From: Cyanobacteria bacterium P01_A01_bin.123 | GTDB lineage: Bacteria > Cyanobacteriota > Cyanobacteriia > Phormidesmidales > Phormidesmidaceae | Direction of reading: 5' to 3' | DNA length: 64,000 nt | NCBI GenBank assembly: GCA_039815185.1 | Contig: JBCBZT010000031.1 | Span: 34,094-98,093 of the forward strand | Shown: positions 1 through 34,630 of the stretch, in pieces | Layout of the letters: the number at the start of each line of letters is the position of its first letter | Numbering within the stretch: position 1 is the first letter of the stretch | Position numbers and translations under genes: made by a program | Notes under the pieces: model-generated | Told to the model about the DNA's origin: nothing | What the model saw: only the letters and a program-made list of their open reading frames with translations | Databases searched by the model: none

Positions 1-982
1 AGCACTGGCAATGATAGCTATCGGGCTGTTAGCCCTAAGTTTAGGTCGGGGAGATGATTTTAGTCAGGCAATCCCAATATTGGGGAGTTTGGCTTTAGGG
101 GCTAATCGGCTTCTGCCAGCCCTGCAGCAATCATTCTCGGCGTTGGTCAAGATCCAGGGAGCACGCGTTTCTTTGCGGAGAATTCTAAGGGGTTTAAAGC
201 GCTCAGCTGCCCCAATGCAGATGTGGATCCCCAGTGTTGGCTTACCGCTTGAAGATGAACTTCGGTTTGAAAATGTCTGGTTTCGCTATAGTGATGATTC
301 TGATTGGGTATTGCAGGATTTGAATTTGAGCATTGAGCCCCGAACTACTGTCGGATTTGTAGGCAGTACGGGGAGCGGGAAAAGTACGACAGCAGACCTA
401 ATGTTAGGTCTGTTGAAACCTCAAAGAGGAACGATTTGGATTGATGGACAACCCCTGGATGGTAAGCGATTGCGGCAGTGGCAACACGGTATTGCCCATG
501 TGCCCCAGAGCATTTTTCTAGCTGATGCCACAATCTTAGAGAATATTGCCTTTGGAATTCCTAAGGATCAAATTAATTTCGAGCAAGTGTATGAGGTAGC
601 TCGATTAGCAAAAATAGATGAGTTCATTCGGGGACTACCCAATCAGTATGAGACTTTTGTAGGAGAGCGCGGGGTACGGTTATCGGGGGGGCAACGGCAG
701 CGGATTGGGATAGCGCGGGCATTGTATCGGCAAGCATCAGTGATTGTATTTGATGAGGCAACAAGTGCCCTAGACAATGCAACTGAGAAAGAAGTTATGG
801 CTGCAATTAATGGATTAAGTCATCACTTTACGATTATTCTGATTGCTCATCGATTAAGCACGGTCGAAAAATGCGACAAGATTTTTGAACTACATCAAGG
901 GTGCTCAGTTGCTCAGGGTAATTATCACGACTTAATAAAAGAGAGTTCAAGCTTTCGCTTAATGAGTCAAGGTTTAAAGTGA
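1..982 (+). CDS. ABC transporter permease/ATP-binding fusion (HepA/MsbA-like polysaccharide exporter), 5'-truncated by window edge
   Basis: Walker A GSTGSGKS, signature LSGGQRQR, Walker B VIVFDEATSALD, H-loop IAHRLST; the tail of a TM domain precedes them; frame is open upstream of position 11. Confidence 0.9.
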   Translation, partial: ALAMIAIGLLALSLGRGDDFSQAIPILGSLALGANRLLPALQQSFSALVKIQGARVSLRRILRGLKRSAAPMQMWIPSVGLPLEDELRFENVWFRYSDDSDWVLQDLNLSIEPRTTVGFVGSTGSGKSTTADLMLGLLKPQRGTIWIDGQPLDGKRLRQWQHGIAHVPQSIFLADATILENIAFGIPKDQINFEQVYEVARLAKIDEFIRGLPNQYETFVGERGVRLSGGQRQRIGIARALYRQASVIVFDEATSALDNATEKEVMAAINGLSHHFTIILIAHRLSTVEKCDKIFELHQGCSVAQGNYHDLIKESSSFRLMSQGLK

Positions 983-1068
983 ATTTCTCTTGAATGCGTT
1001 TCTCCAATCAAGTCATTCTGGGGAATTAGCTATTAATAAGATTAGGAAGAGGTACCAAATCTTGAAAT

Positions 1069-1935
1069 ATGAAGCTTATTAGCGAAAAGACAAAGCCTCT
1101 GATCAAAAAGAGCCGACGTGTATATAGATTGGCAACGGCGCAGTTTCGTGTCTTACCAGATTTTATAATTGTTGGGGCACAAAAATCTGGTACTACAAGC
1201 TTATTTAAGTATTTATCTCAACACCCAAAAATATTGCATAGTAGCCCCAAAGAAATACTTTATTTTGATGGAGGAACAAATCCTAAAATTGATAATTACG
1301 AAAAGGGGCTTAATTGGTATAGATCTCATTTCCCATTAAGATTTCAGATGAAAGAAGGCTACGTAACAGGTGAGGCATCTCCACTTTACTTATTTAACTC
1401 AAAAGTACCTGGGAGAATCAGTAAAGTGCTGCCTGATGTCAAAATTCTCGTTCTTCTTAGGAACCCTGTCGATAGAGCCATCTCACACTATTTTCATCAA
1501 GTAAGGATAGGGAAAGAAACCTTGCCAATTATGGAAGCCATGACGGCAGAAGCAAGTAGGCTTGAGAAAGCCCTAAAAGCAGGCAATTCTAGAGATGACA
1601 GCTTTATTAGGTATTCGTATAAGACCAGAGGTTATTATAAAGAACAACTCGCAAGGTATTTTAATTATTTCCCAAGGAAACAAATTCTGATCCTAAAAAG
1701 TGAAGATTTATTTGGCAAGGTAACGACCATTTTGGAGCAGGTGTTTTGTTTTTTGGGGCTCGATAAGGACGTGTTAATTAAGGATTTGCAGCCAAGAAAT
1801 ACGCTGAACTGTAATAAGGAACTAATGAAGCAAAGAGAAGAAATAGCTCCAGAGATTTATCGTTTCCTAGAAGAGCACTTCTTACCTTATAATCTTAAGC
1901 TTTATGATTTCTTAGAAGATTTTTGTGGATGGTAA
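1069..1935 (+). CDS. Sulfotransferase (heparan-sulfate 3-O/N-sulfotransferase-like family)
   Basis: 5'-PAPS loop PDFIIVGAQKSGTTSL, GEASPLY, 3'-PB motif LRNPVDRAISHY. Confidence 0.9.
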   Translation: MKLISEKTKPLIKKSRRVYRLATAQFRVLPDFIIVGAQKSGTTSLFKYLSQHPKILHSSPKEILYFDGGTNPKIDNYEKGLNWYRSHFPLRFQMKEGYVTGEASPLYLFNSKVPGRISKVLPDVKILVLLRNPVDRAISHYFHQVRIGKETLPIMEAMTAEASRLEKALKAGNSRDDSFIRYSYKTRGYYKEQLARYFNYFPRKQILILKSEDLFGKVTTILEQVFCFLGLDKDVLIKDLQPRNTLNCNKELMKQREEIAPEIYRFLEEHFLPYNLKLYDFLEDFCGW

Positions 1936-2127
1936 TCACGTGAATAACCTGGTTAAATGCTCCATGCTTCTTTAGACTGTATCTCTAAATGTACAATCAT
2001 AACTAGACTTCCAGACAGCATTTCCTCTGATTTAGCCATAGTCGTTAGTTCAGTAAAGTTTTCATAAATAAGGTGATTGGCTAATATATTGGGAAAATCA
2101 TTAATAAACCCTTACTGAAAAATCCCA

Positions 2128-3069
2128 ATGGTGGGTATTGCCGGAAACAACTATTCTATGGCAATAAAGCCAAATTCAATCCAAAGAGTGTTATATAAGA
2201 TAGATAGAGATGTTTTGAGAATTTTGGGGTTTTGGCCTTATTTTTATTGCCAAAGAACCCTCGGTTTCCCAATAGTGAAGCTTGAGTTTTACAAAAAAGT
2301 TAGATACTGGCCAAATCTTAAAAATCCCAAAAGCTTTAACGAGAAAGTTACTCACAAAAAACTGTATGGTCGAAACCCACTATTGCCAATTATTGCTGAC
2401 AAATATAGAGTTCGTGAATATGTAAGATCCCTAATCGGGGAAGAGTATCTGATTCCGCTACTTCAAGTATTGGAGACTCCAGAGGAAATAAATTTTGAAC
2501 TTTTGCCAGATGAATTTATTATTAAAACCAACTTTTCTTCCGGGCTAAATATTCTAATCGAGAATAAGCATGAGGTAAGGCAGAAAAAAATTAAGGCGCA
2601 ACTCTCACATTGGATGGATATGAAATATGGGTATCGAAATCTTGTTTGGTTTGCTCAAGAAATACCCAGAAAAATATTGATTGAGAGACTTCTTAGAAAT
2701 AGCAATGGGGACATACCCTGCGATTATAAATTTTTTGTCTTTCATGGGGAAGTAGAGTTTATTCAGGTGGACTTCGATAGATTTACTAAACATAGTAGAA
2801 TGCTTTATGACAAAGAATGGAAAAAGTTGAATTTTACAATCAGGAACGACTTGCAAAATACTGAAGGCGTGGCAAAACCGAACAATCTTCAGATAATGTT
2901 GGAAATCGCAAAAGAATTGGCAAAAAACTTTTCCTTCATGCGCGTTGATCTATATAGCTGCTCAAACACCATATTTTTTGGAGAACTAACTCCTTTTCCC
3001 ACATCTGGACGGACAAGATTTCACCCTCCCAACGTTGACTTTGAGATTGGTAAATTATGGAAGCTGTAA
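2128..3069 (+). CDS. TupA-like ATP-grasp amidoligase (start may be ATG at 2158)
   Basis: NPKSFNEK, ADKYRVREYV, FIIKTN, DYKFFVFHG, MRVDLY, FGELTPFP motifs typical of ATPgrasp_TupA proteins in polysaccharide loci. Confidence 0.85.
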   Translation: MVGIAGNNYSMAIKPNSIQRVLYKIDRDVLRILGFWPYFYCQRTLGFPIVKLEFYKKVRYWPNLKNPKSFNEKVTHKKLYGRNPLLPIIADKYRVREYVRSLIGEEYLIPLLQVLETPEEINFELLPDEFIIKTNFSSGLNILIENKHEVRQKKIKAQLSHWMDMKYGYRNLVWFAQEIPRKILIERLLRNSNGDIPCDYKFFVFHGEVEFIQVDFDRFTKHSRMLYDKEWKKLNFTIRNDLQNTEGVAKPNNLQIMLEIAKELAKNFSFMRVDLYSCSNTIFFGELTPFPTSGRTRFHPPNVDFEIGKLWKL

Positions 3070-3126
3070 ATGCTCTTCCAGGGCTGGTTGAGTTATAAAA
3101 AATGTTTTTTAAGCCAGTGAACCTTA

Positions 3127-4059
3127 ATGTCTCTAAAATTGACCAGCGCAATCAGCAACCTTAGAGAAAATAGTTTACTGAATTCTTTTACGACCTGGAA
3201 AATAGGTGGCCCAGCACGCTGGTTGACAGAACCAACAACGCGTGAATTGCCTGATTTAATAGCTCAGGCTTCTCAACAAGAAATACCTGTTTACTTTATA
3301 GGTCGTGGTTCTAATATATTGGTTGACGATGCGGGATTGCCAGGTTTAGTAATTTTGACCCGGAATTCGATGACGGAGCTCCGACGGAAGGGAAATCAAA
3401 TTATTGCAGGAAGTGGTGTATTTTTACCCCATCTATCCAAATTTGCAGCTCGAGAAGGATTTTCTGGGTTTGAGTTTCTAATTGGTATTCCTGGTACGGT
3501 AGGTGGAGCTGTAACAATGAATGCGGGTTTAACAGTTTTCCGGCCTCGCGAAATGGTATCTATCGTTGAAAACTTTGATATTGTGAATCCTGATGGCAGC
3601 ATTGAAACATTGACGATGGATGACGTTCGTGCGGGCTATCGCAAGACCAATCTATTAGATGGAAGGAGATTTGTTTTACAAGTCCGCTTCCGCTTAGAGC
3701 ATAAGGGAGAGCCAGAAAAAATCCGTCGCGATACACTCAGTCACCTTTCAGAACGTAAACGCAAGCAGCCTTTAGATAAGCCTACTGCTGGTAGCACATT
3801 TAAGTCACCACTCGGTAGTAAAGGGGCAGGTTGGTATATAGAACAAGCTGGCCTCAAAGGGTTCAAAATTGGCGGGGCGCGAGTGAGTCCAGTACATGCC
3901 AACTGGATTGAAAACTTAGGTGAGGCAACGGCGGCAGATGTGCGGAAATTAATAGTGCATATTCAGAGTATAGTTGAGGTTCGCTGTGAGATAAAGCTTG
4001 AGCCTGAAGTGATTTTTTTGAGTAATAACAGGTCACTCCATGATACAGACTTTAGTTAA
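3127..4059 (+). CDS. murB: UDP-N-acetylenolpyruvylglucosamine reductase (MurB) paralog
   Basis: TTWKIGGPA, GRGSNILV, IPGTVGGAVTMNAG, QP..PTAGSTFK, HANW, LEPEV. Confidence 0.9.
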   Translation: MSLKLTSAISNLRENSLLNSFTTWKIGGPARWLTEPTTRELPDLIAQASQQEIPVYFIGRGSNILVDDAGLPGLVILTRNSMTELRRKGNQIIAGSGVFLPHLSKFAAREGFSGFEFLIGIPGTVGGAVTMNAGLTVFRPREMVSIVENFDIVNPDGSIETLTMDDVRAGYRKTNLLDGRRFVLQVRFRLEHKGEPEKIRRDTLSHLSERKRKQPLDKPTAGSTFKSPLGSKGAGWYIEQAGLKGFKIGGARVSPVHANWIENLGEATAADVRKLIVHIQSIVEVRCEIKLEPEVIFLSNNRSLHDTDFS

Positions 4060-5356
4060 TACAGCAGGAACGGAATCTTTGAGAATGGAGGTTCGTGGGC
4101 CGCAGATACCTTCAGGCGTAGTACAAGTAAGTGGGGCAAAGAACGCGGCTACTCGTTTGATGGCTGCAGCTATGCTCACAGATGAACCTGTTGTTCTACT
4201 CAATTTTCCAACTGAGCTAGTTGACGCGCGCTACAAAGCTAAGTTTATTGAGGCTATGGCTGGCAAAGTGAACTTTGATGCCGCTTCATCAATCGCTTTT
4301 TTGGATTGTTCCAAATTACTTCCTACAGAGTTAGAAGACTATAGCTTTCCCATTCGAACAACCTATCTTCTAGCTGCAGGCCAGCTATATAGGCGTGGTG
4401 TAGCATTTGTTCCTTACCCTGGAGGGTGTAAGCTTGGAGACCGGAAATATGATTTACATCTTATGGTATGGAAATCTCTTGGCTGCCATGTAGAAGAAAA
4501 ATCTAATCATATTAAAGTCTCAGGTCTGCTAAGAGGGGGAGAGATCCATTTTCCTATATCCACTGTAGGAGGCACAGAGAATGCTTTATTGTGTGCTTCT
4601 GTGTCCAAAGGGAAATCTAGAATTTATAACGCATATATTACCCCTGAAATTGAGAATTTGATTGGATTGCTGACTCTGATGGGAGCTAAGATCTGCGTTC
4701 AAGGAATCAGCCAAATTGAGGTGGAAGGAGTCGATTATCTGAGGGGAGCGACGATTCCTGTCATTCCAGATCGCATTGAAGCATTGACCTGGTTAGTTTT
4801 TGCAGCCATATCTGGAGGCGATATTTTAGTTGAAAATGTCCCTTTCGATATCATGAAGATTCCGCTGCTCCACCTTAGACAAATTGGGTTAGATTTTTTC
4901 TCTAATTCAACATCCATTTGGGTATCAAGTAAAGCAAAAGCTCTACCAGATCTCCAACCTTTTGAAGTTGCTTGCGGCACCTACCCTGGAATCATTTCAG
5001 ATATGCAGCCACTTTTTGTGTTGCTTGCACTTCACGCTAGAGGCCGAAGTACAGTCATTGATTATCGTTATCCAAACCGTACTGCTTACCTAAAAGAGCT
5101 ATCTAAGTTCTATCCTGGCTGCATTAAATGGGAACCTGGAAAAATTGTTGTTGAAGGCCCGAATAGTCCGATAGGTGCTACTGCTAACTCAACCGATTTA
5201 CGTGGAAGCATAGCATTAGTTTTGGCAGGAGTATTAGCGAATGGTGAAAGTCAAATAAAGAGGATTGAGATGGCATTGAGAGGATACAATTATCTAGCTG
5301 AGAAATTCTCAGCTATGAGAATAGATATTTCCATTTCTCAGCTTCTGAAAAAATAG
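4040..5356 (+). CDS. murA: Enolpyruvyl transferase, divergent MurA paralog
   Basis: SGAKNA (catalytic Lys), PGGCKLGDRKYDLH (Cys loop), VGGTEN, PDRIEA, YPGIISDMQP, TDLRG; overlaps the murB 3' end by 20 nt. Confidence 0.88.
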   Translation: MIQTLVNTAGTESLRMEVRGPQIPSGVVQVSGAKNAATRLMAAAMLTDEPVVLLNFPTELVDARYKAKFIEAMAGKVNFDAASSIAFLDCSKLLPTELEDYSFPIRTTYLLAAGQLYRRGVAFVPYPGGCKLGDRKYDLHLMVWKSLGCHVEEKSNHIKVSGLLRGGEIHFPISTVGGTENALLCASVSKGKSRIYNAYITPEIENLIGLLTLMGAKICVQGISQIEVEGVDYLRGATIPVIPDRIEALTWLVFAAISGGDILVENVPFDIMKIPLLHLRQIGLDFFSNSTSIWVSSKAKALPDLQPFEVACGTYPGIISDMQPLFVLLALHARGRSTVIDYRYPNRTAYLKELSKFYPGCIKWEPGKIVVEGPNSPIGATANSTDLRGSIALVLAGVLANGESQIKRIEMALRGYNYLAEKFSAMRIDISISQLLKK

Positions 5357-5393
5357 ACTAACTGATTTATGATTCACCTTAGAGGAGCTAGTT

Positions 5394-6443
5394 GTGAGCA
5401 AGCTATTAACTGTAGTTACATCTACATACAATAAAGGCGATCGCAACCGAGCATCAATACAGAGCATTCTTGATCAAACATATCGAGATTTTGATTACAT
5501 TGTTGTTAATGACGGTTCTTCTGATCATACAAAAGCCGTCTTAAACGAGTTTAGAGATCCGAGATTAAAAATAATCCATCAAGAGAACAAGAGTTTTGTT
5601 AAAACTATGTGTTCAGTCATGAGCCAGATAAACACACCTTATGTGGCTATCCAAGGTGCTGGTGATATCTCTTTACCAAAACGCTTTGAGATTCAATTGA
5701 AATATCTTGCTAAGCGCAAAGATTTAGGGGCTGTCGGTTGTAACTTCAGCTATATTGACGAAGTCGGCAAAATCATTAAATTCCCTGAATCTGAATATAT
5801 AGAGTATACTTCAGTTGAACAAATGATTGATAGAAATATCTTTAACCATGGTGAAGTCATGCTTCGCTTAGAGAGTTATCAAAGCGTTGGTGGCTATAGA
5901 TCATTCTTTGTTTATTCTCAAGATCGTGATTTGTGGCTAAGACTACTTGAAATTTGTAAAATAGCCCGTTTGCCAGAACATCTTTATTCTAAAGTTATTA
6001 GTATCGGCAAAGATATTTCAGGCAACCCTTCAAAGGTCGAGAAGCAAGCCCTTTATAGTTTATTTAATAGATACTTAGCAAAAAGAAGACTTGACAATAT
6101 ACCTGATCCTCAGACAGGTGTCGAAATGGAAGCTCTATTCGAGAGTTATGTTCGGCAACTTCCAGAGCATAAAAAGCTAGAAGTCGCCAATGAAATTTTC
6201 AGATCGGGCGTGAGGTTCTCTTTAGAGAATTTAGACAAAAAATTTAATCCCGAAGCCGCAGTTGAAATCATCAAGAAATATAATCCTGAACATCCTTGGG
6301 TAAAAAGGGTTCTGCTTGCGCAAAAGTTCGATCAGTATATCATTGGTGGCAAACCAATTTACAGCTTAATGTCAAGCGCCGAGTCTGTTTTAAGACGGCT
6401 AAAAAGACGCCTTAATTATAAGCTCAAGGCTTTCAAAATATAA
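5394..6443 (+). CDS. Glycosyltransferase family 2
   Basis: N-terminal TYN...SILDQTYRDFDYIVVNDGSSD; QDRDLWLR. Confidence 0.9.
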   Translation: MSKLLTVVTSTYNKGDRNRASIQSILDQTYRDFDYIVVNDGSSDHTKAVLNEFRDPRLKIIHQENKSFVKTMCSVMSQINTPYVAIQGAGDISLPKRFEIQLKYLAKRKDLGAVGCNFSYIDEVGKIIKFPESEYIEYTSVEQMIDRNIFNHGEVMLRLESYQSVGGYRSFFVYSQDRDLWLRLLEICKIARLPEHLYSKVISIGKDISGNPSKVEKQALYSLFNRYLAKRRLDNIPDPQTGVEMEALFESYVRQLPEHKKLEVANEIFRSGVRFSLENLDKKFNPEAAVEIIKKYNPEHPWVKRVLLAQKFDQYIIGGKPIYSLMSSAESVLRRLKRRLNYKLKAFKI

Positions 6444-6540
6444 ACGAGTTTTTATGAAGTAAGCTTTGATCTGAGCTTTGTAATTTTAATAAACATGACA
6501 TAACTCATCTTGCAAAACATTTCTTGAATTCAAAGAGGGT

Positions 6541-7710
6541 ATGAAACTAGCTTATATTGCTCAATCGACTGTCCCGTCACGTTCTGCAGACAGTATTCAT
6601 GTGATGAAGATGTGTCAGGCGTTTCATGGTAATGGCCATGATGTTCATCTCCTTTTACCCAACAAATATTGCGATCGCGAGATAGAGGTCAAGAACTCTT
6701 TTGATTATTATAATGTTGAGCCATGCTTCACTATTTCTTATTTCCCATGGCTTGCTATAAAGGGGCGGGCTTATTTTTATGGGTGGTCTGTAGCAAGACG
6801 AGCTAAAAATCTCAAGCCTGATCTAGTGTATGGGCGAGATATTATTGGCTGTTATTTTGCTTCTACGAATAGACTACCAGTTATCTTTGAATCACATACG
6901 CCTATTGCCCAGTCAGGAAAAATAGCTACCTGGTTATTCAATCATCTAATAAAGCAGCCAACTTTCCAGTATTTAGTTGTGATTACACAATCTCTAAAGC
7001 AGTGGTACCTAGATCACTATAATGTTTTGCAGGGAAAAATAGTAGTTGCTGCTGATGGTGCAGATCTACCTGAGGGTGCTTTAGAAGATCATTTATCCCC
7101 GTTGCCAAATCAAAAACAAAGCCGGTTTCGAGTTGCCTATATTGGTCATTTATATCCAGGGAAGGGGATGGAAGTTATTTCAAAGCTAGTGATGCTTTGC
7201 CCCGACATCGAGTTTCACATAGTTGGCGATCCTGAGAAAGATGTTGCTTATTGGAGTCATTATCTCCGTAAGCATGAAAATGTTATCTTCCACGGATACC
7301 GCCCACATTCAGCAATACATAATATTATGAGGCAAATGGATATTCTTATATCCCCAAATCTTAAGCGGATTGAATTGCCAGGCAAAAATGCTCACGATAT
7401 AGGCAGATGGACATCACCGTTAAAAATATTTGAATATATGGCGGCTCGTAAACCTATTGTGGCATCTGATGTAGAAGTCTTGCGTGAGGTTCTTGAAAAC
7501 GAGAGGAATGCTTTGCTATGTAATCCTGATGATTTGGAAGCGTGGAAAATAGCGCTATACCGACTTAAATCTAGCTCATCTCTATCGCGGAAACTATCTC
7601 AAAATGCATATAAAGATTTGAGTTCTAAGTATACTTGGAAGGTTAGAGGACGACGAGTTTTGAGTCAACAAAATTTGGTGGATTCTTGTCTATCTAGGAG
7701 CACTCATTAA
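6541..7710 (+). CDS. Glycosyltransferase family 4
   Basis: YIGHLYPGKG; SPLKIFEYMAARKPIVASD. Confidence 0.9.
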   Translation: MKLAYIAQSTVPSRSADSIHVMKMCQAFHGNGHDVHLLLPNKYCDREIEVKNSFDYYNVEPCFTISYFPWLAIKGRAYFYGWSVARRAKNLKPDLVYGRDIIGCYFASTNRLPVIFESHTPIAQSGKIATWLFNHLIKQPTFQYLVVITQSLKQWYLDHYNVLQGKIVVAADGADLPEGALEDHLSPLPNQKQSRFRVAYIGHLYPGKGMEVISKLVMLCPDIEFHIVGDPEKDVAYWSHYLRKHENVIFHGYRPHSAIHNIMRQMDILISPNLKRIELPGKNAHDIGRWTSPLKIFEYMAARKPIVASDVEVLREVLENERNALLCNPDDLEAWKIALYRLKSSSSLSRKLSQNAYKDLSSKYTWKVRGRRVLSQQNLVDSCLSRSTH

Positions 7711-7718
7711 GTATCGAC

Positions 7719-8900
7719 ATGCCGGATTTTGATTTTTCACCCTATGGATTAACGGGAAACTTATTAGGTATAGCGTTTTGTACGGCCGCCGTAAGTTATT
7801 TAGTGGCATTGTTATACCTTGAACCTCTAAAAGCTATTATGGTAGTGCTCTTTAAATTTTCTCTTCCAGTAATTTACTTTGCTTTCTTCTTTAATGGAAG
7901 CTGGACTTTCGTAGATGACTTTGAATACTTAAGACTGGGTCGTGAGCTCATCAGTCAGGGGTATGAGCCTTTAACCGCCTTGATTTCCTCGGAAGGGCGA
8001 GAAACGCTACGAAGTTTAGCAGGTGGGACACATATTCTTTATATTTGGTGGAATTCTTTAGCTGAAAATCTGTTTGGTTCTTATTATTACTCACCTGTTT
8101 TCTTAAATATATTTCTGACTTTTATTTGTGGTTTTGTGTTTTCAGAAATTCTTAAATTGCTAGATTTTATTTGTAAGTATAGACGCCAATTTCTAGTATT
8201 TTTCTTACTTCAATGGGACATATTAGCATGGTCATCTATCATAAATCAAAAAGATATTATGGTGATGACACTAACTATGTCAGCCTTGTTCTTCGCGCTT
8301 AGAATGGTTAAGAAAAAGAGTTTTGTAGACCTTTGCTGCTTATTGCTTATCTGCTATATCTCTTTATGGTTGAGACGTTATGTTCCAATACTTCTCTTCA
8401 TATCAATTTTGATTTGGCTAACACTCATAACAAAAGGGAGAAATAGAATACTTTTGATTTCTAGTCTTGCTATTATTGCTGCTATCTTTTATTCGAGTTT
8501 TTCATCTTCATTTGGCTTTTTGTCATCAGTCGGATTCTCAGGAATTGTAAGAGCCCCCTTTAATATATTCAGGATGTCAGTTACTCCACAGCCCTGGTCA
8601 ATTGTTGATCATAAACTATTTCTTTTGCCTGTTTCTATCTTTCATTGTGTTTTCTATGTTCCTATGATCATTGGATTGATAGGTCTTTGGAAAACCTCAA
8701 AAGAGATTTCTTTGATAATTATTTACCTGGCAGTTGGGTTGATCGCGTTTGGTGCTAGTGATTTAGACTTATTGCAAGGTCCTCGCCATCGAATTCAGTT
8801 TACCTTTGCGATTGCGATCGCACAATTCCACTTTCTTTGGATACTTAACAGCTATTTATTTAAGAAAAGATTGGCAAAAAGTCGATTTTTCTATACTTAG
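7719..8900 (+). CDS. Polytopic membrane protein, probable Wzy-like polymerase or GT-C-fold enzyme
   Basis: About 10 hydrophobic segments, DD motif after the N-terminal TMs, C-terminal PRHR; lies among glycosyltransferases. Confidence 0.55.
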   Translation: MPDFDFSPYGLTGNLLGIAFCTAAVSYLVALLYLEPLKAIMVVLFKFSLPVIYFAFFFNGSWTFVDDFEYLRLGRELISQGYEPLTALISSEGRETLRSLAGGTHILYIWWNSLAENLFGSYYYSPVFLNIFLTFICGFVFSEILKLLDFICKYRRQFLVFFLLQWDILAWSSIINQKDIMVMTLTMSALFFALRMVKKKSFVDLCCLLLICYISLWLRRYVPILLFISILIWLTLITKGRNRILLISSLAIIAAIFYSSFSSSFGFLSSVGFSGIVRAPFNIFRMSVTPQPWSIVDHKLFLLPVSIFHCVFYVPMIIGLIGLWKTSKEISLIIIYLAVGLIAFGASDLDLLQGPRHRIQFTFAIAIAQFHFLWILNSYLFKKRLAKSRFFYT

Positions 8901-9026
8901 AATCAGAAATCAAGCACTTTTTGGGTAGATGCTTTAATGAATTTCTTGGAATGCATGTACCATGCTTTAGCACGGAACAATAACCAGGCTTTATCTACTG
9001 ATATGTCATTATATTGTTGAGCAGCT

Positions 9027-10148
9027 ATGGAGCCTTATAGAGTGGCAATCTTTTTACCTTCCCTGAGAGGCGGTGGGGCAGAAAAGGTTATGCTCAAACT
9101 CGCAAGTGAATTTATAAGCCTTGGCCTAAGCGTTGATTTGATTTTGGCTCAGAAAGAGGGATCCTACCTATCAGACCTGCCGGATAAGATCCGTGTTGTC
9201 AGTTTAAATTCTTCCCGCGTTTTATTTACGCTCAGCAAGTTAGTTAAGTACCTGAAATCTGAAAAACCATATACGCTAATAGCTGCACTTAATCATGTCA
9301 ATGTGGTTGCAATCTTAGCAAAACTTCTTTCGGGTGCTTCCACACATATTATTGTCACTGTACATAATTCTCTCTCAGCCACTTCTAGTAATGCGATTCG
9401 GTTAAACGCTCGCGTGTTACCTTGGATTATCCATTTTTTGTATCCATTTGCTGACCATATTGTTGCGGTATCTTCAGGAGTGGCAGATGATCTTGCCAGC
9501 GTAACCAAGCTAAATCATAGTCAAATTCGGGTTATTTACAATCCGGTTGTTACTGATACTTTATTTGCGAAGATAGACGAACCTGTTGAGCATTCATGGT
9601 TTGGCAATGGATTTCCTCCAGTAATATTAGCAGTTGGCAGACTCACCAGACAGAAGGACTTTGAATGCCTAATAAAGGCGTTTGATATTGCTCGTAGAGA
9701 ACATGATCTCCGACTATTGATTTTGGGAGAAGGAGAAGATCGGGAGAAACTAGAATCTCTAGCTAAAGATTTGGGACTACAACATTTCGTCGATATGCCA
9801 GGCTTTGTCAATAATCCATATGCCTACATGTCTAGATCAGCTATGTTTGTTTTGTCTTCTGCATGGGAAGGGCTTCCAACGGTTTTGATTGAAGCGATGG
9901 CAACGGGTACGCCTGTGGTTTCGACGGATTGCGTAAGTGGGCCAAGGGAGATCTTAGAAAATGGCAAGTATGGCCCTTTAGTTGAGGTTGGAAATGCTAG
10001 CGATCTTGCAGAAGCTATAAAAGGTATCTTGAAATCACCGACATCCTCTATAAATCTCAAACAAAGAGCAATGGATTTTTCTGCCCAGCAGAGCCTATCT
10101 GGCTATTTAAGCTTACTTCAGGCAGATACGTCTAATCTAGAAGTTTAA
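9027..10148 (+). CDS. Glycosyltransferase family 4
   Basis: GGGAEKV, VGRLTRQKDF, SSAWEGLPTVLIEAMA. Confidence 0.92.
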   Translation: MEPYRVAIFLPSLRGGGAEKVMLKLASEFISLGLSVDLILAQKEGSYLSDLPDKIRVVSLNSSRVLFTLSKLVKYLKSEKPYTLIAALNHVNVVAILAKLLSGASTHIIVTVHNSLSATSSNAIRLNARVLPWIIHFLYPFADHIVAVSSGVADDLASVTKLNHSQIRVIYNPVVTDTLFAKIDEPVEHSWFGNGFPPVILAVGRLTRQKDFECLIKAFDIARREHDLRLLILGEGEDREKLESLAKDLGLQHFVDMPGFVNNPYAYMSRSAMFVLSSAWEGLPTVLIEAMATGTPVVSTDCVSGPREILENGKYGPLVEVGNASDLAEAIKGILKSPTSSINLKQRAMDFSAQQSLSGYLSLLQADTSNLEV

Positions 10149-10177
10149 AGCAGCTAGATTCATAAATTATTGTTGAC

Positions 10178-11305
10178 ATGGAAAATGTTGATCGAATTAT
10201 TTTCTTGATTACTAGCTTAGATTTTGGTGGAGCACAAGCTCAAGTTGTTCCTTTGGCAATTCAATTGAGTAAAGCGAACTGGGCAGTTAGTATCGTATCA
10301 ATGCTAGCTCCACAAGCCTTTACATCTGAGCTATGTGCTGCAGGTGTAATGGTTAAGTCTTTGGATATGAAGAGGGGATTGCCCAACCCAGGCGCGATCG
10401 CGAAACTTGCTCGTTATATTCGCGAGTTTCAACCTCAAATTGTACACAGCCATCTGGTTCATGCAAATTTGCTCGCTAGAGTTACACAAATTATTGCCCC
10501 CGTACCCGTTTTAATCTCTACTATTCACAATATCAGTGAGGGTAGACGCTGGCGCGAAATTGGCTATCGTATGACCGATCGCTGGTGTGAGGTTACAACA
10601 AGTATTAGCCAGGCAGCTCTTGAAAGATATGTTCGTATTGGAGCAGTTCCTGCTGAAAAGATTCTCCTTTTACCCAATAGCGTAGATATTGATCGCTTTT
10701 ATCCCAACGAGGATTGGAGACTAGAACTGCGTCAACAACTCAATCTGGTTGATAAATTTGTTTGGTTAGCCGTGGGGCGTTTGGAAAAGCAAAAAGATTA
10801 CCCTAACATGCTACAAGCGTTTGCACTTGTCGTGCATCAGAGACCTGATGCACATTTAATTATTTGTGGTAAAGGGCCTTTAGAGGAGGCGCTTAAAATG
10901 CTTGCCGAACAGTTAAAAATTTCCCGGAATGTTCATTTCTTAGGTATTAGACAAGATATTCCTAAGTTAATGAATGCTGCCGATAGCTACTTGATGTCCT
11001 CGGCATGGGAAGGAATGCCAGTTGTTTTACTTGAGGCGTCTGCGTCTGGATTACCAACGGTTGCCACAGATGTAGGCGGCAATCGAGAAGTGATACGCCA
11101 AGGTGAGAGTGGTTTACTGGTAACATCCAAAAACCATGAAGCATTGGCTAATGCAATGCAAGATATTATAAATATGCCATTAGATGAAAGGGAGAAAATG
11201 GGTACTCTAGCTCGAAAGAATATCATCGAAAATTATAGTTTTCAGGTGTATATAGATAAGTGGAAAACGCTATATAAACAAATGAAACTAAGGAAAACCC
11301 AGTGA
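10178..11305 (+). CDS. Glycosyltransferase family 4
   Basis: GGAQAQV, VGRLEKQKDY, SSAWEGMPVVLLEA. Confidence 0.92.
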   Translation: MENVDRIIFLITSLDFGGAQAQVVPLAIQLSKANWAVSIVSMLAPQAFTSELCAAGVMVKSLDMKRGLPNPGAIAKLARYIREFQPQIVHSHLVHANLLARVTQIIAPVPVLISTIHNISEGRRWREIGYRMTDRWCEVTTSISQAALERYVRIGAVPAEKILLLPNSVDIDRFYPNEDWRLELRQQLNLVDKFVWLAVGRLEKQKDYPNMLQAFALVVHQRPDAHLIICGKGPLEEALKMLAEQLKISRNVHFLGIRQDIPKLMNAADSYLMSSAWEGMPVVLLEASASGLPTVATDVGGNREVIRQGESGLLVTSKNHEALANAMQDIINMPLDEREKMGTLARKNIIENYSFQVYIDKWKTLYKQMKLRKTQ

Positions 11306-11308
11306 ATT

Positions 11309-12181
11309 ATGAATAGTGATTTCAGCATTGACTTTATATTGGTTGGACCCTTTAAAACCGGAACTTCTTGGATTTATGAATATCTAAAGCGCCACCCTCA
11401 GGTAAATGTGCCAATTAAAGTCAAAGAAACATATTTTTTTGATAAAAAATGCTCAAAAGGAACGAGTTGGTATCTATCTCATTTTGAAAAAGGGAATAGT
11501 TCATCTATTTTCGGAGAAGTATCACCTAGTTACTTCCATTCTATTGACGCCACTAATAGCATTTACAAAAACTATTCGAATTGTAAGATTCTTATAACTT
11601 TAAGAGATCCTATAGAACGACTAATTTCCTATTATGGACATATGCTTCAAAGGGGAGATATTCGCTATGATATGACGTTTATTGATGCTCTTCATAAAAA
11701 GGAGATATTAGTAGAATCTTCTAAATATTATAGCCACTTATGGAGGTGGGTAGATGTGTTTGGTAAAGAAAATGTGTATATTTTATTTTACGAGGATCTG
11801 CAAGCCTCGAATCAGCTTTTTTCGAAAACCCTTTGTAGTATTTTGGATATTGATTTTATTGATCCAAAGAAATTTGAGCTTATGGATAAAGTTAATCCAA
11901 CGAAGATCCCGACTAATTATTTTGTAGCTCGCTTGCTTACTGCGACTAACCGTTTTCTTCGACATCATGGATTTCATGGCATCGTTAATTTTGTTAAAAG
12001 AGTAGGACTCCAGTCTTTGTTGTTTAAGCAGTCATTTAATAAAAAGACGCTGGAGATTGAGGATATGCAATATGCATTTGATCTGATTAAAGATGAGCTT
12101 CAGCTTCTGGGTAGTGAGTTTACGTTAGATATTGAAAAATGGCGCAGTAACTGGATTTATAAAGGCTTAGATGTTTTCTAG
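11309..12181 (+). CDS. Sulfotransferase
   Basis: DFILVGPFKTGTSW, KETYFFD, GEVSPSY, LRDPIERLISYY. Confidence 0.88.
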   Translation: MNSDFSIDFILVGPFKTGTSWIYEYLKRHPQVNVPIKVKETYFFDKKCSKGTSWYLSHFEKGNSSSIFGEVSPSYFHSIDATNSIYKNYSNCKILITLRDPIERLISYYGHMLQRGDIRYDMTFIDALHKKEILVESSKYYSHLWRWVDVFGKENVYILFYEDLQASNQLFSKTLCSILDIDFIDPKKFELMDKVNPTKIPTNYFVARLLTATNRFLRHHGFHGIVNFVKRVGLQSLLFKQSFNKKTLEIEDMQYAFDLIKDELQLLGSEFTLDIEKWRSNWIYKGLDVF

Positions 12182-12278
12182 TTGAGTCTCTGACATTGAA
12201 ATTGCTTCAAAGTATTGAACGAACAAATCAGAACGAATAAATCAGTAAGTGGGCGCTATGTAATCCCAAGTTGAGGTT

Positions 12279-13466
12279 ATGGGCATAAGTTATACTCCGC
12301 AGCGATTTAAAGTACTGCATTTGATTACTCGCCTTGCGATTGGTGGTGCTCAAGATAACACGTTGCTTACTGTCGAAAATCACTCCCGGGAGTGCTTTGA
12401 TGTTCACCTAGCCGCTAACCCTAACGATGCCTGGTTCAGTCGTGCGCAGGAGAGTGCTGATAGTTTTCACTCACTACCTCACCTTGAGCGTGCTATTCAC
12501 CCGATTAAAGATCTTCAAGCGCTATTTGCCATTATTAATCTGCTCCGCCGCGAAAAATTTGACGTTGTTCATACCCACAGTTCTAAAGCAGGTATCTTAG
12601 GCCGTATTGCGGCTCGTGTTACAGGTGTACCTGTTGTGGTGCACACGATTCATGGCTTTCCATTTCATGACTTTATGTCGGCCTTCAAGCGACAGTTTTA
12701 CACCATCCTTGAGCGCAGTATTCGTTCCTTTGCAGATTTTTATATCACTGTCTGTGAACTTAATCGACAACAAGCGATCGCCCTCAAGCTCATTTATCCT
12801 GAAGCATCTCAGACCGTTTACAGCGGCATCAGCTTTGCAAAACTGGATCGCCCTTCTGATGCCAGGGTGACTAAACTAAGACTTAACATCTCTGATGGAT
12901 GGCAAACTATTGTTATGGTAGGGCGGCTTGATCAACAAAAGTCTCCTTCCTATCTGATAGATGCCTTGGCCAAGGTTGTTCGACAATACCCTAAAACGCT
13001 ACTCCTATTAGTCGGTGAAGGAGAACTGCGATCGCGCCTAGAGGCTCAGACTCAACACCTTGGTTTAATGGAACAGGTTCGATTTCTCGGCTCCCGAGAT
13101 GATGTGCCCGAGATCCTAAAAATTGCAGATGTGTTTGCCCTTTCTTCCCTTTGGGAGGGGTTAGGCCGTGCCATGACCGAAGCGATGCTCTTGGGCAAAT
13201 CCGTTGTCGTGCCAGAAATCTATGGCATTCCAGAAATCGTTCATCACCATCAGACCGGCTTACTCTTTGCCGCAGGTGATACACAACAACTGGCGAACCA
13301 TCTGATTTATCTGTTGCAACATCCTGATGTGCGAGAAAAACTCGGCAAGAATGCTCAGAAGCTAACCCGCGAGCGTTTTGATGCTGCCGTAATGGTCGAA
13401 CAGATTGAGGCCATTTATGACAAGCTGCTGAGCCAAAAAGGGATTGCGGTTAAACAACGCGCTTAA
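12279..13466 (+). CDS. Glycosyltransferase family 4
   Basis: GGAQDNT, HTHSSKAG, VGRLDQQKSP, SSLWEGLGRAMTEAM. Confidence 0.92.
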   Translation: MGISYTPQRFKVLHLITRLAIGGAQDNTLLTVENHSRECFDVHLAANPNDAWFSRAQESADSFHSLPHLERAIHPIKDLQALFAIINLLRREKFDVVHTHSSKAGILGRIAARVTGVPVVVHTIHGFPFHDFMSAFKRQFYTILERSIRSFADFYITVCELNRQQAIALKLIYPEASQTVYSGISFAKLDRPSDARVTKLRLNISDGWQTIVMVGRLDQQKSPSYLIDALAKVVRQYPKTLLLLVGEGELRSRLEAQTQHLGLMEQVRFLGSRDDVPEILKIADVFALSSLWEGLGRAMTEAMLLGKSVVVPEIYGIPEIVHHHQTGLLFAAGDTQQLANHLIYLLQHPDVREKLGKNAQKLTRERFDAAVMVEQIEAIYDKLLSQKGIAVKQRA

Positions 13467-13484: not shown

Positions 13485-14486
13485 ATGGAGATGCCCACCC
13501 AGACTGTATTGGTGACCGGGGCGACTGGCTTTATTGGTAGCCATTTGCTGCCTGCTTTGCATCAGGCCAATTGGCAGACGGCAGTTGCGCTGCGCTGCGC
13601 TGCTCGCCAACCTTGTAAAATGCCAGCCCAGTCCGTGATCGTTGGGGATATTGGCGAAAGAACAGACTGGCAAGCGGCATTAGCTGGCGTCTCTACAGTG
13701 ATACATTTGGCTGCTCGGGCCCATCAAATCCAAGACAACTCATCCAATCCTGAAAAAGACTTTTGGCAGGTCAATACGCAAGGTACTGCAAATTTAGTCA
13801 AGCAATGTCTTGCCGCGGGCGTCCAACACTTTATTTTCCTCAGCTCCATTGGCGCGATGGCAACGCTGAGTTCCCAAGTCCTGAATGAAGATTCTCCCTG
13901 TCACCCAGATACCCCTTACGGGCGTAGCAAATTCAAGGCAGAGCAGGCCCTAATTGACCTGGCTCAAGACAGTTCTATGGCGTGGACTATCCTCCGTCCC
14001 ACCCTCGTTTATGGCCCTGGTAACCCTGGCAACATGGCACGGTTAATGAAGCTCATCAATACAGGACTGCCGCTGCCTTTAGGATCTATCCAAAATCGTC
14101 GTAGCTTGCTCTATGTTGGCAACCTCGTTGACATCATTCTGCGTACGTTGATCCACCCCAATGCCCAAAATCAAATATTTCTCTGTAGCGATGGGCAAGA
14201 TCTCTCAACCTCAGCGCTGATCCAAAAGATTGCCCATTGTCGCCACCAACCCTGCCGTCTGATTGCCCTGCCGTCTGCGTGGTTAAGACTGGGCGGCAAA
14301 CTCGGCGATACGGTTCAGCAGATTTTGGGACGTCCCTTGAGCCTCAATTCCGAGACTCTGGATCGCCTGCTCGGCTCATTATGGATAGATAATTCCAAAC
14401 TGCGATCGCGATTGGATTGGTCTCCCCCCTATTCCTTGGAAGCAGGATTGCGCCACACCTTTCATGGCACTGGCCAGATTGCTTAA
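13485..14486 (+). CDS. NAD-dependent epimerase/dehydratase
   Basis: VTGATGFIG, HLAARAH, YGRSK, RPTLVYGPG. Confidence 0.92.
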   Translation: MEMPTQTVLVTGATGFIGSHLLPALHQANWQTAVALRCAARQPCKMPAQSVIVGDIGERTDWQAALAGVSTVIHLAARAHQIQDNSSNPEKDFWQVNTQGTANLVKQCLAAGVQHFIFLSSIGAMATLSSQVLNEDSPCHPDTPYGRSKFKAEQALIDLAQDSSMAWTILRPTLVYGPGNPGNMARLMKLINTGLPLPLGSIQNRRSLLYVGNLVDIILRTLIHPNAQNQIFLCSDGQDLSTSALIQKIAHCRHQPCRLIALPSAWLRLGGKLGDTVQQILGRPLSLNSETLDRLLGSLWIDNSKLRSRLDWSPPYSLEAGLRHTFHGTGQIA

Positions 14487-14568
14487 TGCACCAGGTAACG
14501 CTGGGATGCTCAGCACACCAGCAATCTGGCTCGCCGTAGTGCACAAAGCTTTGTGGCGATGGCTATCA
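14462..14568. repeat. Dispersed ~108-bp structured repeat (MITE-like), degenerate copy 1
   Basis: Colinear with 50499-50606: TGGCCAGATTGCTTAATGCACC...AGCAATCTGGCTCGC.GTAG...CACAAAGCTTTGTG. Confidence 0.8.
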
Positions 14569-14696
14569 AGACGGATTGCCATCGCTGCGGCTGTGGTGGG
14601 TATCGCGCTTGGCTTGACCTGATTAGGCCCCCGGTTTTAGGGGGGCAGCATTGCTTTTTAAGTCTCTACCCATGCAAACAGGGGAGTTAATTACTC

Positions 14697-15719
14697 ATGA
14701 CGCTAGTTTTGTCTATCGTTGCCGGATTTACATTTGCGATCAGTTTGCTGAGTGTGGGCCTGATCCGCCAGCATTTGCAACATCAACTGCTTGATATTCC
14801 CAATGAACGCAGTTCTCATACTCAACCCACGCCGCGGGGGGGGGGATTAGGGTTTATTATCGCCTTTGCGATCGCGTTTTGGGTTGCTCAATCAGTGGCC
14901 CCAAATTTGGCCGCAGGCATTGCGCCTTTGCGCTGGCTCACCTTGATCCCTTTGGTGGCCATCGGTATTCTGGATGACTGGCGCGGCCTTTCCTCGGGGC
15001 TCAGGTACCTGATTCAACTCAGCGTGGCCGTGGCCGTGGTTTACAATTGTGGCCCATTTCCAGTTCCAGGGCTGGATCAATTGGGTGCGCCAGGGCTCTG
15101 GATCGCGCTTGGCTTGACGGTAATGGGCTTGACTGCCCTGATCAACTTTTACAACTTTATGGATGGATTGGACGGGTTAGTTGCTGGCGTCTCAGCTGTG
15201 CAGCTGAGCTTCTTAGCCCTCTGGTGTCATCAACCTGTGCTGTGGTTGTGGGTCGCTGCCCTGATGGGATTCCTCTATTGGAATTGGTCTCCCGCCAAGA
15301 TCTTTATGGGGGATGCCGGCAGTACGACATTGGGGGCAATTGTTGGCATCTCACTGCTCTCACAACCCCAGCTCGATTTGGGCTCAGCTTGGACGACGCT
15401 GGCCATTTTGCTGCCCCTAGTGGGCGATGCTATTTACACGATCTGCTGTCGCCTACTGCGGGGGGAAAATATCTTTAAGGCACATCGTAGCCATCTCTAT
15501 CAACGGCTTCATCAAGCGGGGTGGCCCCATGCCCAAGTTGCAGGGCTCTACCTATCGTTGACATTGGCGATCGCGTTGGGGGTAGCGCAATTTGGTTCGG
15601 CTGCCGCCTGGGCTAGTCTTGGGGGGATACCCCTGGCGATCGCGCTGACAGAAATCCATCTCGCGACCTTCTCCCAGCTTGCAGCCCACAAGTCGCCTCG
15701 GCTGTTAAACGAGGATTAA
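14697..15719 (+). CDS. WecA/MraY-family polyprenyl-phosphate sugar-1-phosphate transferase
   Basis: DIPNERSSH..PTPRGGG, GILDD, NFYNFMDGLDG, KIFMGDAGS, HRSHLYQRL. Confidence 0.92.
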   Translation: MTLVLSIVAGFTFAISLLSVGLIRQHLQHQLLDIPNERSSHTQPTPRGGGLGFIIAFAIAFWVAQSVAPNLAAGIAPLRWLTLIPLVAIGILDDWRGLSSGLRYLIQLSVAVAVVYNCGPFPVPGLDQLGAPGLWIALGLTVMGLTALINFYNFMDGLDGLVAGVSAVQLSFLALWCHQPVLWLWVAALMGFLYWNWSPAKIFMGDAGSTTLGAIVGISLLSQPQLDLGSAWTTLAILLPLVGDAIYTICCRLLRGENIFKAHRSHLYQRLHQAGWPHAQVAGLYLSLTLAIALGVAQFGSAAAWASLGGIPLAIALTEIHLATFSQLAAHKSPRLLNED

Positions 15720-19117: not shown

Positions 19118-20182
19118 TCAACGAAATAGCCGAAATGGCGATAAAATCAGGCCCAAGGGACTGAAGATGCCGCCAACGGTGTCGGAAAACGCAGCCATGC
19201 CTGAGCGTCCTACCAGCACTACATCGTTATTGCGTAGGGATGGGTTCGTGTCTTCATTGATGCCTTGGTTGAAGGCGATCGGGACAGTGCGTTGCGAAAC
19301 TGTACCATCTGGGTTCAGCCGCACCAGTTCGACTTCGTTGATATTGGCGCGTCGGGGGTCAAAACCACCCGCTGCCAATAGGGCTTGGTTTAGCGGTGCA
19401 TTGGGTGGAATCTCAACCGTACCGGGGGCGGTGACTTCGCCCACTATCGTGACTTGAATGGTGTCAGGCGAAAAATTAGCCGCTGATAGCTGGGTGACTT
19501 CTTGGGGGGTTAGGGCTGTGGCTGTGGGAATATTAATGGCATCCCCGTGGCGGAGGGTGATGTCATTTTGAATGTCGCCCGTTGCCAAGATATCCCACAA
19601 ATTAATTTGAATAACCTGTTCGCTACCCGAAGATTGAGGGCGACGGATTTCAATTTGTTGAACATTGGCTTGTTCAGTAATCCCGCCGGATAGCTGAATC
19701 GCTTCAATCACTGTGGGCCATTCAATGATGCCGTTGCTGCCTTGTTCAGTCACTGGGATTTCATACGAACCGGGGCGGTTAATCTCACCTGAAATGCCGA
19801 TTTGGATGGGGCGCGGAGCCACTAGATCGACGGTAACTAAGGGCGTTCTCAAATAGGAATCATAAGCATTTTGAATGGCTTGGGTGGCAGCTTCAAGGGT
19901 CAACCCGGCAACAGGTAATTTGCCAATTAACGGTAAGTTGATAGACCCATCCACTAAGACCTGTTCTTCGCTGTTGTATTCCGGTACATTGAAAAACTCG
20001 AGCGAAAGTCGATCGCCAGGGCCCAGTAAATAACTGGCATCAATAGTCTGGCTTGTTGATACGCTAGGGGCTGCTGAACTGGGTTCAGGGTCGGGTAGAG
20101 ATTCAACCTGAGCGCTGGCCAGGGGAGATAAAGGGAACCCTATCAGCGTGCTCAGACCGGCCGAAAGTAAAAAAGCTTTCAT
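19118..20182 (-). CDS. wza: Polysaccharide export protein (Wza/OPX, SLBB repeats)
   Basis: Signal peptide, YLLGPGDRL, DGSINLPLIG, GEINRPG and GEVTAPG SLBB repeats. Confidence 0.9.
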   Translation of the reverse strand: MKAFLLSAGLSTLIGFPLSPLASAQVESLPDPEPSSAAPSVSTSQTIDASYLLGPGDRLSLEFFNVPEYNSEEQVLVDGSINLPLIGKLPVAGLTLEAATQAIQNAYDSYLRTPLVTVDLVAPRPIQIGISGEINRPGSYEIPVTEQGSNGIIEWPTVIEAIQLSGGITEQANVQQIEIRRPQSSGSEQVIQINLWDILATGDIQNDITLRHGDAINIPTATALTPQEVTQLSAANFSPDTIQVTIVGEVTAPGTVEIPPNAPLNQALLAAGGFDPRRANINEVELVRLNPDGTVSQRTVPIAFNQGINEDTNPSLRNNDVVLVGRSGMAAFSDTVGGIFSPLGLILSPFRLFR

Positions 20183-27800: not shown

Positions 27801-28196
27801 TCACGATGGCCACTCGGGGTACTGGGGCGCTTGCCCACCGATGTGATCCCATGGTGCTTTTGAGTCCACAAATATATGGGCCGCAATTTCGACCCCTGGA
27901 TCGCCGTTGACACAACCCAGCGTGACGCCTTTAACCGTGCCCCGAAAGATGCCGCACAGGGTTGAACCACAAACTCGACAGAAGGCTAGTCCCCAACCTT
28001 GCTTTGAGCTGAACTGTTGGAGTTTGTCTTCGCCAGCCGTCCACCGGAATTTGCTGGGGTCTGAAATTTCAGCAAAAGCGGATGATGCACCGCTAAATGC
28101 TTTGCGACAGCGAGAACAGTGACATGCCCTGGCGTTTGTCAGTGGGCTGTCTATTTCGTATTGGATCGCCCCACAGAAGCATTCACCTGTAATCAT
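27801..28196 (-). CDS. GFA (CENP-V) family Zn-binding protein
   Basis: GECFCGAI, CHCSRCRK, FCRVCGS, HIFVDSKAPW. Confidence 0.92.
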   Translation of the reverse strand: MITGECFCGAIQYEIDSPLTNARACHCSRCRKAFSGASSAFAEISDPSKFRWTAGEDKLQQFSSKQGWGLAFCRVCGSTLCGIFRGTVKGVTLGCVNGDPGVEIAAHIFVDSKAPWDHIGGQAPQYPEWPS

Positions 28197-28312
28197 GCTG
28201 TGGCCTCCAAGTAGGGACGGTCTTCAGTACACATTATGATGATTGGCTATTGAGTTGAGCAATTAAATTACATTATGGGCATAATCATTTTATTGAGGGG
28301 AGCGTTACCAAA

Positions 28313-30422: not shown

Positions 30423-30448
30423 GGATCAAAACTATACAACTTGGAGTA

Positions 30449-34560: not shown

Positions 34561-34630
34561 GGTGGTTCTTTATTAACACGGACAGCCGTCGTAATTTCGA
34601 CTTTGTAAAAATCAAACAGTCGTATGTCGT

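Follow-up and report, generated by a model that had tools for sequence, protein, structure and literature searches.

The surface glycans of bacteria, cyanobacteria included, have long been known to carry ether-linked lactate, and lactyl-ether sugars are described in such glycans (PMC12679510). The corresponding chemistry of the cell wall belongs to the housekeeping enzymes MurA (EC 2.5.1.7) and MurB (EC 1.3.1.98). This work concerns a divergent second pair, designated MurA' and MurB', together with an adjoining glycosyltransferase (GT), in 64,000 nucleotides of the cyanobacterial genome P01_A01_bin.123 (contig JBCBZT010000031.1, positions 34,094 to 98,093; this whole stretch is called the window). 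The three genes quite probably form a mobile module which, judged from sequence, would convert a nucleotide sugar, probably a UDP-uronic acid, into its lactyl ether for use in a surface polysaccharide.

Other uses of related chemistry have been described. NikO from the nikkomycin pathway of Streptomyces (PDB 4FQD) is a MurA-fold enzyme redeployed to the 3'-hydroxyl of UMP (PMC6801904). Glucolactilic acid, an ether-linked lactate sugar of E. coli O124 (gene wfeP) and Shigella boydii 17, has been proposed to be made as a UDP-sugar (PMC7685785). Genes are assigned for it in both organisms, so the statement of an earlier sequence-only reading of this DNA, that lactylated sugars lacked assigned genes, did not hold; wfeP is described as a pyruvyltransferase, not a MurA. 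MurA- and MurB-like genes are also listed for Methanosarcina and Natrinema in PMC10117817, which does not state their clade. In the open-access papers searched, the idea of MurA and MurB serving lactylation is touched on without being assigned; none of them was found to describe a clade of MurA/MurB paralogues that lactylates polysaccharides, or to demonstrate an enzyme for ether-linked lactate outside peptidoglycan.

In the window, murB (3127-4059) and murA (4040-5356) are intact open reading frames (ORFs) overlapping by 20 nt, and they lie between a TupA-like ligase and GTs with no dcw genes among the flanking genes, exactly as the sequence-only reading had it. That reading was correct about the murB-murA pair in its region of 2128 to 5356, but missed the third partner, a GT of family 2 (GT2) at 5394-6443, just beyond its end. 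Both genes are extra copies. The separate housekeeping genes for which the reading had proposed looking were found by tblastn of the genome as one other murA, on contig C92 (31% identity, with canonical LRAS, FPTDMQ and VFENR motifs), and one other murB, on contig C29 (41% identity to the window copy), preceded by an ORF that we take from its sequence to be murC-like. The window MurB is not the murC-linked copy and groups with other MurA'-linked MurBs; it scores 219 bits against TIGR00179 (cut-off 144.5) and has the FAD-binding domain PF01565 and the C-terminal domain PF02873, and the GS-x-F motif of the catalytic Ser is present in 71/71 MurB' copies of the loci described below. The window MurA reaches 325 bits against the broad PRK09369 model (cut-off 297) and 306 bits against TIGR01072, whose cut-off of 392.7 is not reached. 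Among 50 genomes that carry MurA', all 50 have a second MurA in a TIGR01072 search (48 above the cut-off), no clade copy passes that cut-off, and two MurBs were present in 19 of the 20 carrier genomes tested.

A scan of GTDB genomes returned 104 relatives of MurA', of which the best 80 underlie the locus counts; the search patterns preselected positions 231-238 and 300-307 in these 80 loci. The 120 top-ranking homologues on the list share 53-100% identity with the window MurA', and among these 120 matches are Cyanobacteria, Verrucomicrobia, Bacteroidota, Desulfomicrobium and Planctomycetota. Archaeal names are missing from the 120 matches listed in either of two homologue searches and from the 80 loci. 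In a quick IQ-TREE analysis, 81 clade proteins from nine phylum-level groups and 38 housekeeping MurAs fell on opposite sides of a long branch (SH-aLRT support 100), and genes for glycan synthesis adjoin MurA' in nearly all of the 80 loci. MurA' forms its own clade, is an extra copy and stays in surface-glycan loci, which is how the tree comparison suggested by the sequence-only reading turned out. The window copy falls among those of other cyanobacteria, metagenomes and phages, adjoining Verrucomicrobia, and not with the MurA of its own host. This position, together with a low GC content (about 39% over window 1-12,000, with GC3 values of 0.31-0.36 for genes between 1069 and 12181), suggests that the locus was acquired horizontally, and the trees suggest a verrucomicrobial origin of the cyanobacterial copies. 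The host genome has 8.1 Mb and 50% GC and is cyanobacterial by gene content and kin, with 6% contamination in its record. The clade was found in 0 of 400 other genomes of the host phylum, and the link that the sequence-only reading drew to the lactylated exopolysaccharides of Nostoc and Cyanospira is consequently weak. Second MurAs of the 1.7-Mb cyanobacterial genomes G186 and G258 (L112-L115) were set aside as unrelated: both MurA copies of each genome have canonical motifs and a position outside glycan loci, and the second copies have no MurB or GT nearby.

The conserved unit is MurA', MurB' and one cognate GT, without the ATP-grasp ligase. MurB' is present in 72/80 loci, and in 60 of the 63 flanked on each side by 5 kb or more. 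MurA' is accompanied by a single one of three GT classes in 70/80 loci (47 GT2, 17 divergent GT4-like, 6 of another GT4-like class) and never by two, the score thresholds having been placed, once the search was done, where the scores showed visible gaps; GT2 and GT4 would be expected to overlap about 10 times, and no overlap was observed. The remaining 10 loci comprise four of Flavobacteriaceae, with a region of the lipopolysaccharide (LPS) core type, and six with none of these, four of them on short contigs. The GT class switches 16 times on the MurA' tree; an independent-pairs test of the classes was rejected as circular, since GT-less loci were dropped and each row bore one label, which leaves the 16 changes as the sole result drawn on. 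The protein at 5394-6443 is a member of the cognate GT2 subfamily and has the motif G-A-G-D, without a canonical DxD(D). The form G[SA]GD is found in 43/47 cognate GT2s, whereas D-x-D-D is found in 27/38 other GT2s of the same loci. By sequence, this GT2 finds its best PDB match in the domain of chondroitin synthase that transfers GlcA (glucuronic acid), the C-terminal one (domain E 2.4e-8), a match too generic to count. Among 8000 longer candidates no fused MurA'-MurB' form was seen, a weak indication. In one locus (L009:11342-12373), of a genome with a single MurB, a nitroreductase-family flavoprotein lies between MurA' and GT2 and is possibly a replacement reductase; L056 and L078 have the same protein alongside MurB'.

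MurA' combines an unchanged catalytic center with a changed sugar site. The residues below are numbered as in E. coli, mapped through a Vibrio housekeeping MurA. The motifs IRTTY, IISDMQ and DYRYPNR named by the sequence-only reading are all present, as are the catalytic Lys and Cys (K34 = K22 and C130 = C115), and the window enzyme keeps the catalytic and phosphoenolpyruvate (PEP)-binding K22, N23, R91, C115, R120, D305, R331, R371 and R397. Because the 80 loci were pattern-selected at 231-238 and 300-307, the residue argument leans on 204 homologues, of which 203-204 retain K22, N23, D49, R91, C115, R120, H125, D231, R232, E234, D305, R331, D369, R371 and R397. The uracil loop and the diphosphate-binding segment are kept as well (R120, D123, L124, H125, T162, G164). 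Changed in the same set are L26T (186 homologues), P27R/K (198), E188T/S (202), I327R (204) and E329P (204), with A92T, S93T, I94Y, V122Y, A186Y (204), T326Y and F328Y in addition; housekeeping MurAs have E188 in 38/38 and E329 in 36/38. The sugar pocket thus appears, from the alignment, to have been rebuilt with two new Arg/Lys gained and two Glu lost, the catalytic and PEP-binding residues being unchanged. In the open-access papers searched, the only contact residue for UDP-N-acetylglucosamine (UDP-GlcNAc) that was found is D305, of the glucosamine pocket. An AlphaFold model of MurA' (pLDDT 91.5) has TM scores of about 0.87 to MurA structures, 0.83 to NikO and 0.75 to AroA; it confirms the MurA fold and no more.

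A sister clade of MurA-like proteins is found on plasmids of Qingshengfaniella, Agrobacterium sp. MA01 and Rhizobium gallicum (L178, L179, L182), with the motifs IRNTLL, DNMEA and DLRFPGR. These copies stand outside the search-pattern selection; MurB adjoins in 3/3 and the same GT2 subfamily in 2/3. They have R27, R327 and P329 in common with MurA', with R188 in place of E188 and N in place of R232. The loss of two acids and the gain of basic residues near the sugar site, in MurA' and the sister clade alike, fit a carboxylated acceptor.

The genes flanking the pair include an ABC exporter, two sulfotransferases, one GT2, four GT4s, a WecA-like transferase, Wzc and Wza, and the features of the locus are as follows.

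11..982, plus strand: HepA/PglK-like ABC exporter, 3' end of the gene (607 aa in all, starting upstream of the window; below family cut-offs)
1069..1935, plus strand: sulfotransferase 1 (PF00685)
2128..3069, plus strand: TupA-like ATP-grasp amidoligase, accessory (PF14305)
3127..4059, plus strand: MurB', predicted FAD enolpyruvyl reductase, module core (TIGR00179, over cut-off)
4040..5356, plus strand: MurA', divergent predicted enolpyruvyl transferase, module core (PF00275)
5394..6443, plus strand: cognate GT2, G-A-G-D for DxDD, module core (PF00535)
6541..7710, plus strand: GT4 glycosyltransferase (PF00534)
7719..8900, plus strand: hydrophobic membrane protein with a GT-C-like fold, candidate polymerase (without a Pfam match)
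9027-10148 and 10178-11305, plus strand: two GT4 glycosyltransferases (PF00534)
11309..12181, plus strand: sulfotransferase 2 (PF00685)
12279-13466, plus strand: GT4 (PF00534)
13485-14486, plus strand: NAD-dependent epimerase/reductase (PF01370)
14697-15719, plus strand: WecA/MraY-family initiating transferase (PF00953)
16771-18978, minus strand: Wzc-like co-polymerase, converging on the locus (PF13807/PF13614)
19118-20182, minus strand: Wza-like export protein, converging on the locus (PF02563)

In the proposed pathway, MurA' would move the enolpyruvyl group of PEP onto the 3-hydroxyl of a UDP-sugar, as its kept catalytic residues indicate, and MurB', by its family membership, would use NADPH and FAD to reduce the 3-O-enolpyruvyl UDP-sugar to the (R)-lactyl ether. 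The G-x-G-D GT2 that co-occurs with them would pass the modified sugar, with inversion, to a lipid-linked repeat, a role that a retaining GT4 may take in other genomes. The sulfotransferases and the TupA-like ligase would add further groups, and export and polymerization would fall to the ABC exporter, the membrane protein, Wzc and Wza. The nucleotide-activated lactyl sugar for the polymer, as first put forward by the sequence-only reading, is still the best reading, given the extra copies, the separate clade, the kept catalytic residues and the seemingly changed sugar pocket.

Which sugar is modified is less clear-cut. A uronic acid (GlcA, galacturonic acid or N-acetylhexosaminuronic acid) has about an even chance of being the acceptor; GlcNAc is less likely, and a neutral hexose less likely again. 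Genes similar to UDP-glucose dehydrogenase are present in 20/80 loci. A gene named as UDP-glucuronate-4-epimerase-type from its AQAGVRYS motif (no NCBIfam equivalog passed) lies within 10 kb of MurA' in 11/43 copies, compared with 1/49 for rmlB (p=0.001; 50 carrier genomes). This proximity lends modest support to a uronate.

Several points weigh against the proposed pathway and its uronate acceptor. MurB' is missing from 8/80 loci, three of them with full flanks, and three phage records hold MurA' and GT2 without a MurB match. The GT thresholds, as said, were fixed after the search. The epimerase enrichment is not significant relative to gmd (5/41; p=0.17 at 10 kb and 0.07 at 15 kb), and its counts treat related genomes as separate though they are not independent. 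Uronic-acid supply genes are absent from the window locus, ugd and the epimerase being on other contigs, and the placement of R27, R327 and R232 in the sugar pocket is provisional. No enzyme assay was found, nor any polymer structure or named carrier whose glycan is known to be lactylated, and the genetic route known for glucolactilic acid is a different one.

The alternative that survives best, although it is unlikely, is that the pair makes ordinary UDP-N-acetylmuramic acid as a dedicated, feedback-insensitive supply, and that the GT2 places N-acetylmuramic acid in the polysaccharide. Muramic acid does occur in O-antigens and capsules, MurA' is above the cut-off of PRK09369, and N23, D305, H125 and the uracil-loop residues D123 and L124 are all kept. 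However, the near-invariant changes at the sugar site (L26T, P27R, A92T, S93T, A186Y, E188T/S, I327R, E329P) exceed what a simple duplicate would need, and the carriers tested already have a housekeeping MurA and MurB; true duplicates of MurA, in Prochlorococcus-sized genomes, retain the canonical motifs and are not part of glycan loci.

A still more doubtful alternative includes the TupA-like ligase in the same pathway, where, as the sequence-only reading had surmised, it would amidate the lactyl carboxyl; the decoration would resemble a muramyl peptide. The ligase ORF at 2128-3069 is intact (PF14305, 173 bits, profile positions 1-239 of 241) and immediately precedes murB' both in the window and in a related strain; TupA also adjoins the module in L005 and L027 and lies 1.1 kb upstream in L215. 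In the 50 carrier genomes there are only three TupA matches, two of which are within 7 kb of MurA'. Against this membership, 47/50 carrier genomes have no TupA match (E<=1e-15), and TupA lies within 10 kb of MurA' in only 3/80 GTDB loci and 1/11 metagenome loci with a MurA' match, and upstream of it in 0/5 of the closest relatives with enough upstream DNA (L002, L003, L205, L207, L208). TupA homologues occur in 14/150 other genomes of the host phylum, of which the 400 sampled for the MurA' clade gave none. The window TupA is 28-36% identical to TupAs of other MurA' loci and 32-40% identical to those from genomes lacking MurA'; no solved relative was found for it by sequence, and no amine-supplying gene was seen beside it. 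The C-terminal TupA-like domain of Cj1438, from the HS:2 capsule of Campylobacter jejuni, amidates the C6 carboxylate of GlcA (PMC11800379). The window ligase is of the same Pfam family and likewise lies in a polysaccharide locus, although it differs in having no visible amine-supply gene alongside. By analogy, TupA may be a later and separate decoration enzyme that forms an amino-acid amide on a polymer carboxyl, the C6 of a uronate being favored over the lactyl group.

It is improbable that the order of events is reversed, with the GT acting first and MurA' on a lipid-linked or polymer-bound sugar, or that an enolpyruvyl ether persists without MurB'. The MurB'-less loci and phage records would agree with such a product, and NikO (PMC6801904) demonstrates that the MurA fold can switch acceptor; yet the uracil loop and diphosphate-binding segment are kept, the altered donor-binding motif of the GT2 fits a modified donor, and loci without MurB' can draw on the housekeeping MurB. 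Public records do annotate both genes as murA and murB, but it is highly improbable that they are a reserve pair for peptidoglycan, or a copy insensitive to fosfomycin, that came by chance into a glycan locus, given glycan-synthesis neighbours in nearly all 80 loci, a cognate GT that travels along and a fosfomycin-target Cys kept in 204/204.

Genes of the proposed lactyl-ether module also occur in other settings. Three viral contigs from IMG/VR (L217-L219; L218:6989-9134; record G452) carry MurA' with a cognate G-S-G-D GT2. One is a complete tailed phage of 139 kb with terminal repeats, and PHROGs identify a terminase, tail fibre J, an endolysin, a DNA polymerase and PhoH. The phage MurA' is 65% identical to the window copy and falls inside the cyanobacterial subclade, and the two phage genes are possibly host-surface remodelling genes. 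In Flavobacteriaceae (L018, L020, L022 and L077, at about 6000-13000), MurA'-MurB' is found in a locus of LPS-core type without the usual GT; its GT9, Kdo kinase and Stealth-family protein point to a lactylated core sugar. A wider proposal, which we hold at somewhat below even, is that MurA' constitutes an undescribed cross-phylum family of UDP-uronic-acid enolpyruvyl transferases. With MurB' and the DxD-less GT2, whose missing Asp is maybe replaced by the lactyl carboxylate of the donor, this family would provide a second, convergent route to lactyl-ether sugars such as 3-O-lactyl-glucuronic acid, and the tailed phage that captured MurA' and GT2 would remodel host surface glycans.

The order TupA-MurB-MurA-GT2-GT4 is kept over window 1992-8861 on a contig of run X3, which is about 94% identical and comes from a different study, so that an assembly artefact does not account for the arrangement. 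Window 1021-1991 is skipped by the X3 contig, and sulfotransferase 1 is absent in the related strain. In run X6, contig cover is missing over window 668-6003 while the downstream GTs are covered, and no contig joins across the gap. A promoter and terminator scan gave results at chance level. The structure neighbours of the 7719-8900 protein in the Atlas are clusters of PMT/ArnT type (TM 0.6-0.7), under the naming bar. Upstream of the window (C109:30244-32226; L227:244-2226, minus strand) is a gene for a 660-aa membrane protein similar to UDP-GlcNAc 4,6-dehydratase; with the epimerase and WecA-like gene (13485-15719) it resembles the WbpM/WbpV/WbpL set, which suggests a 6-deoxy-N-acetylhexosamine as the first sugar. 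Between those last two genes, a short repeated element (14470-14566) draws exceptionally deep contig coverage and numerous loose ends in 4/4 runs. Further upstream (C109:18482-24749), three similar membrane proteins of about 690 aa stand in tandem behind an ABC ATPase. Elsewhere in the window, a 530-aa protein (25418-27010, minus strand) carries a 4Fe-4S ferredoxin-like segment at its N terminus and a helix-turn-helix domain at its C terminus, and a second low-GC stretch (28000-38000; 38-44%) contains a desaturase fused to cytochrome b5, a DevBCA-type exporter whose ATPase is long, and a cyclase-like gene.

The window thus contains an intact, horizontally spread module that most likely provides a lactyl-ether decoration of a surface glycan by the MurA/MurB chemistry known from the cell wall. 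Since the module consists of three soluble enzymes, a straightforward assay of phosphate release could settle how the lactyl ether arises. If the proposal is true, a wide misannotation would be corrected, as public records name these genes ordinary murA and murB in at least nine phylum-level groups; the fold that is the fosfomycin target would have gained a new sugar specificity by a few fixed residues; and a DxD-less GT2 would be available for making lactylated glycans.

MurB-like genes are found in glycan loci elsewhere, as E. faecalis cpsG and on a plasmid of the archaeon Natrinema. The plasmid of Natrinema pellirubrum (L181:6877-11368) has a MurB-like reductase by an annotated polysaccharide pyruvyl transferase, together with a GT2, a flippase, aglF and aglM, and on a plasmid of Paracoccus aestuarii (H41) such a reductase also adjoins an annotated polysaccharide pyruvyl transferase. 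The combination of pyruvyl transferase and MurB-like protein is likely a parallel route to lactyl ethers. The Natrinema partner, annotated as a pyruvyl transferase, is unlike MurA', the MurB-type reductase in a glycan locus being common to both systems. The MurA' module would be a convergent route beside that of wfeP, described as a pyruvyltransferase. A polysaccharide pyruvyl transferase (PF04230) is absent from the window locus, the two matches of the genome lying on C26 and C70, and a Vibrio murA'-murB' DNA query had no match, at the DNA level only, in 5,426 E. coli genomes. With NikO, MurA' shares 21% identity and a TM score of 0.83; NikO belongs to an antibiotic pathway and is not known to have a MurB or GT partner. 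With housekeeping MurA and MurB, the module shares the fold, the catalytic and PEP-binding residues, the FAD motifs of MurB and, presumably, the two steps of enolpyruvyl transfer and reduction. Unlike housekeeping MurA, MurA' belongs to a long-branch clade under the TIGR01072 cut-off, is always an extra copy and is accompanied by a cognate GT instead of murC.

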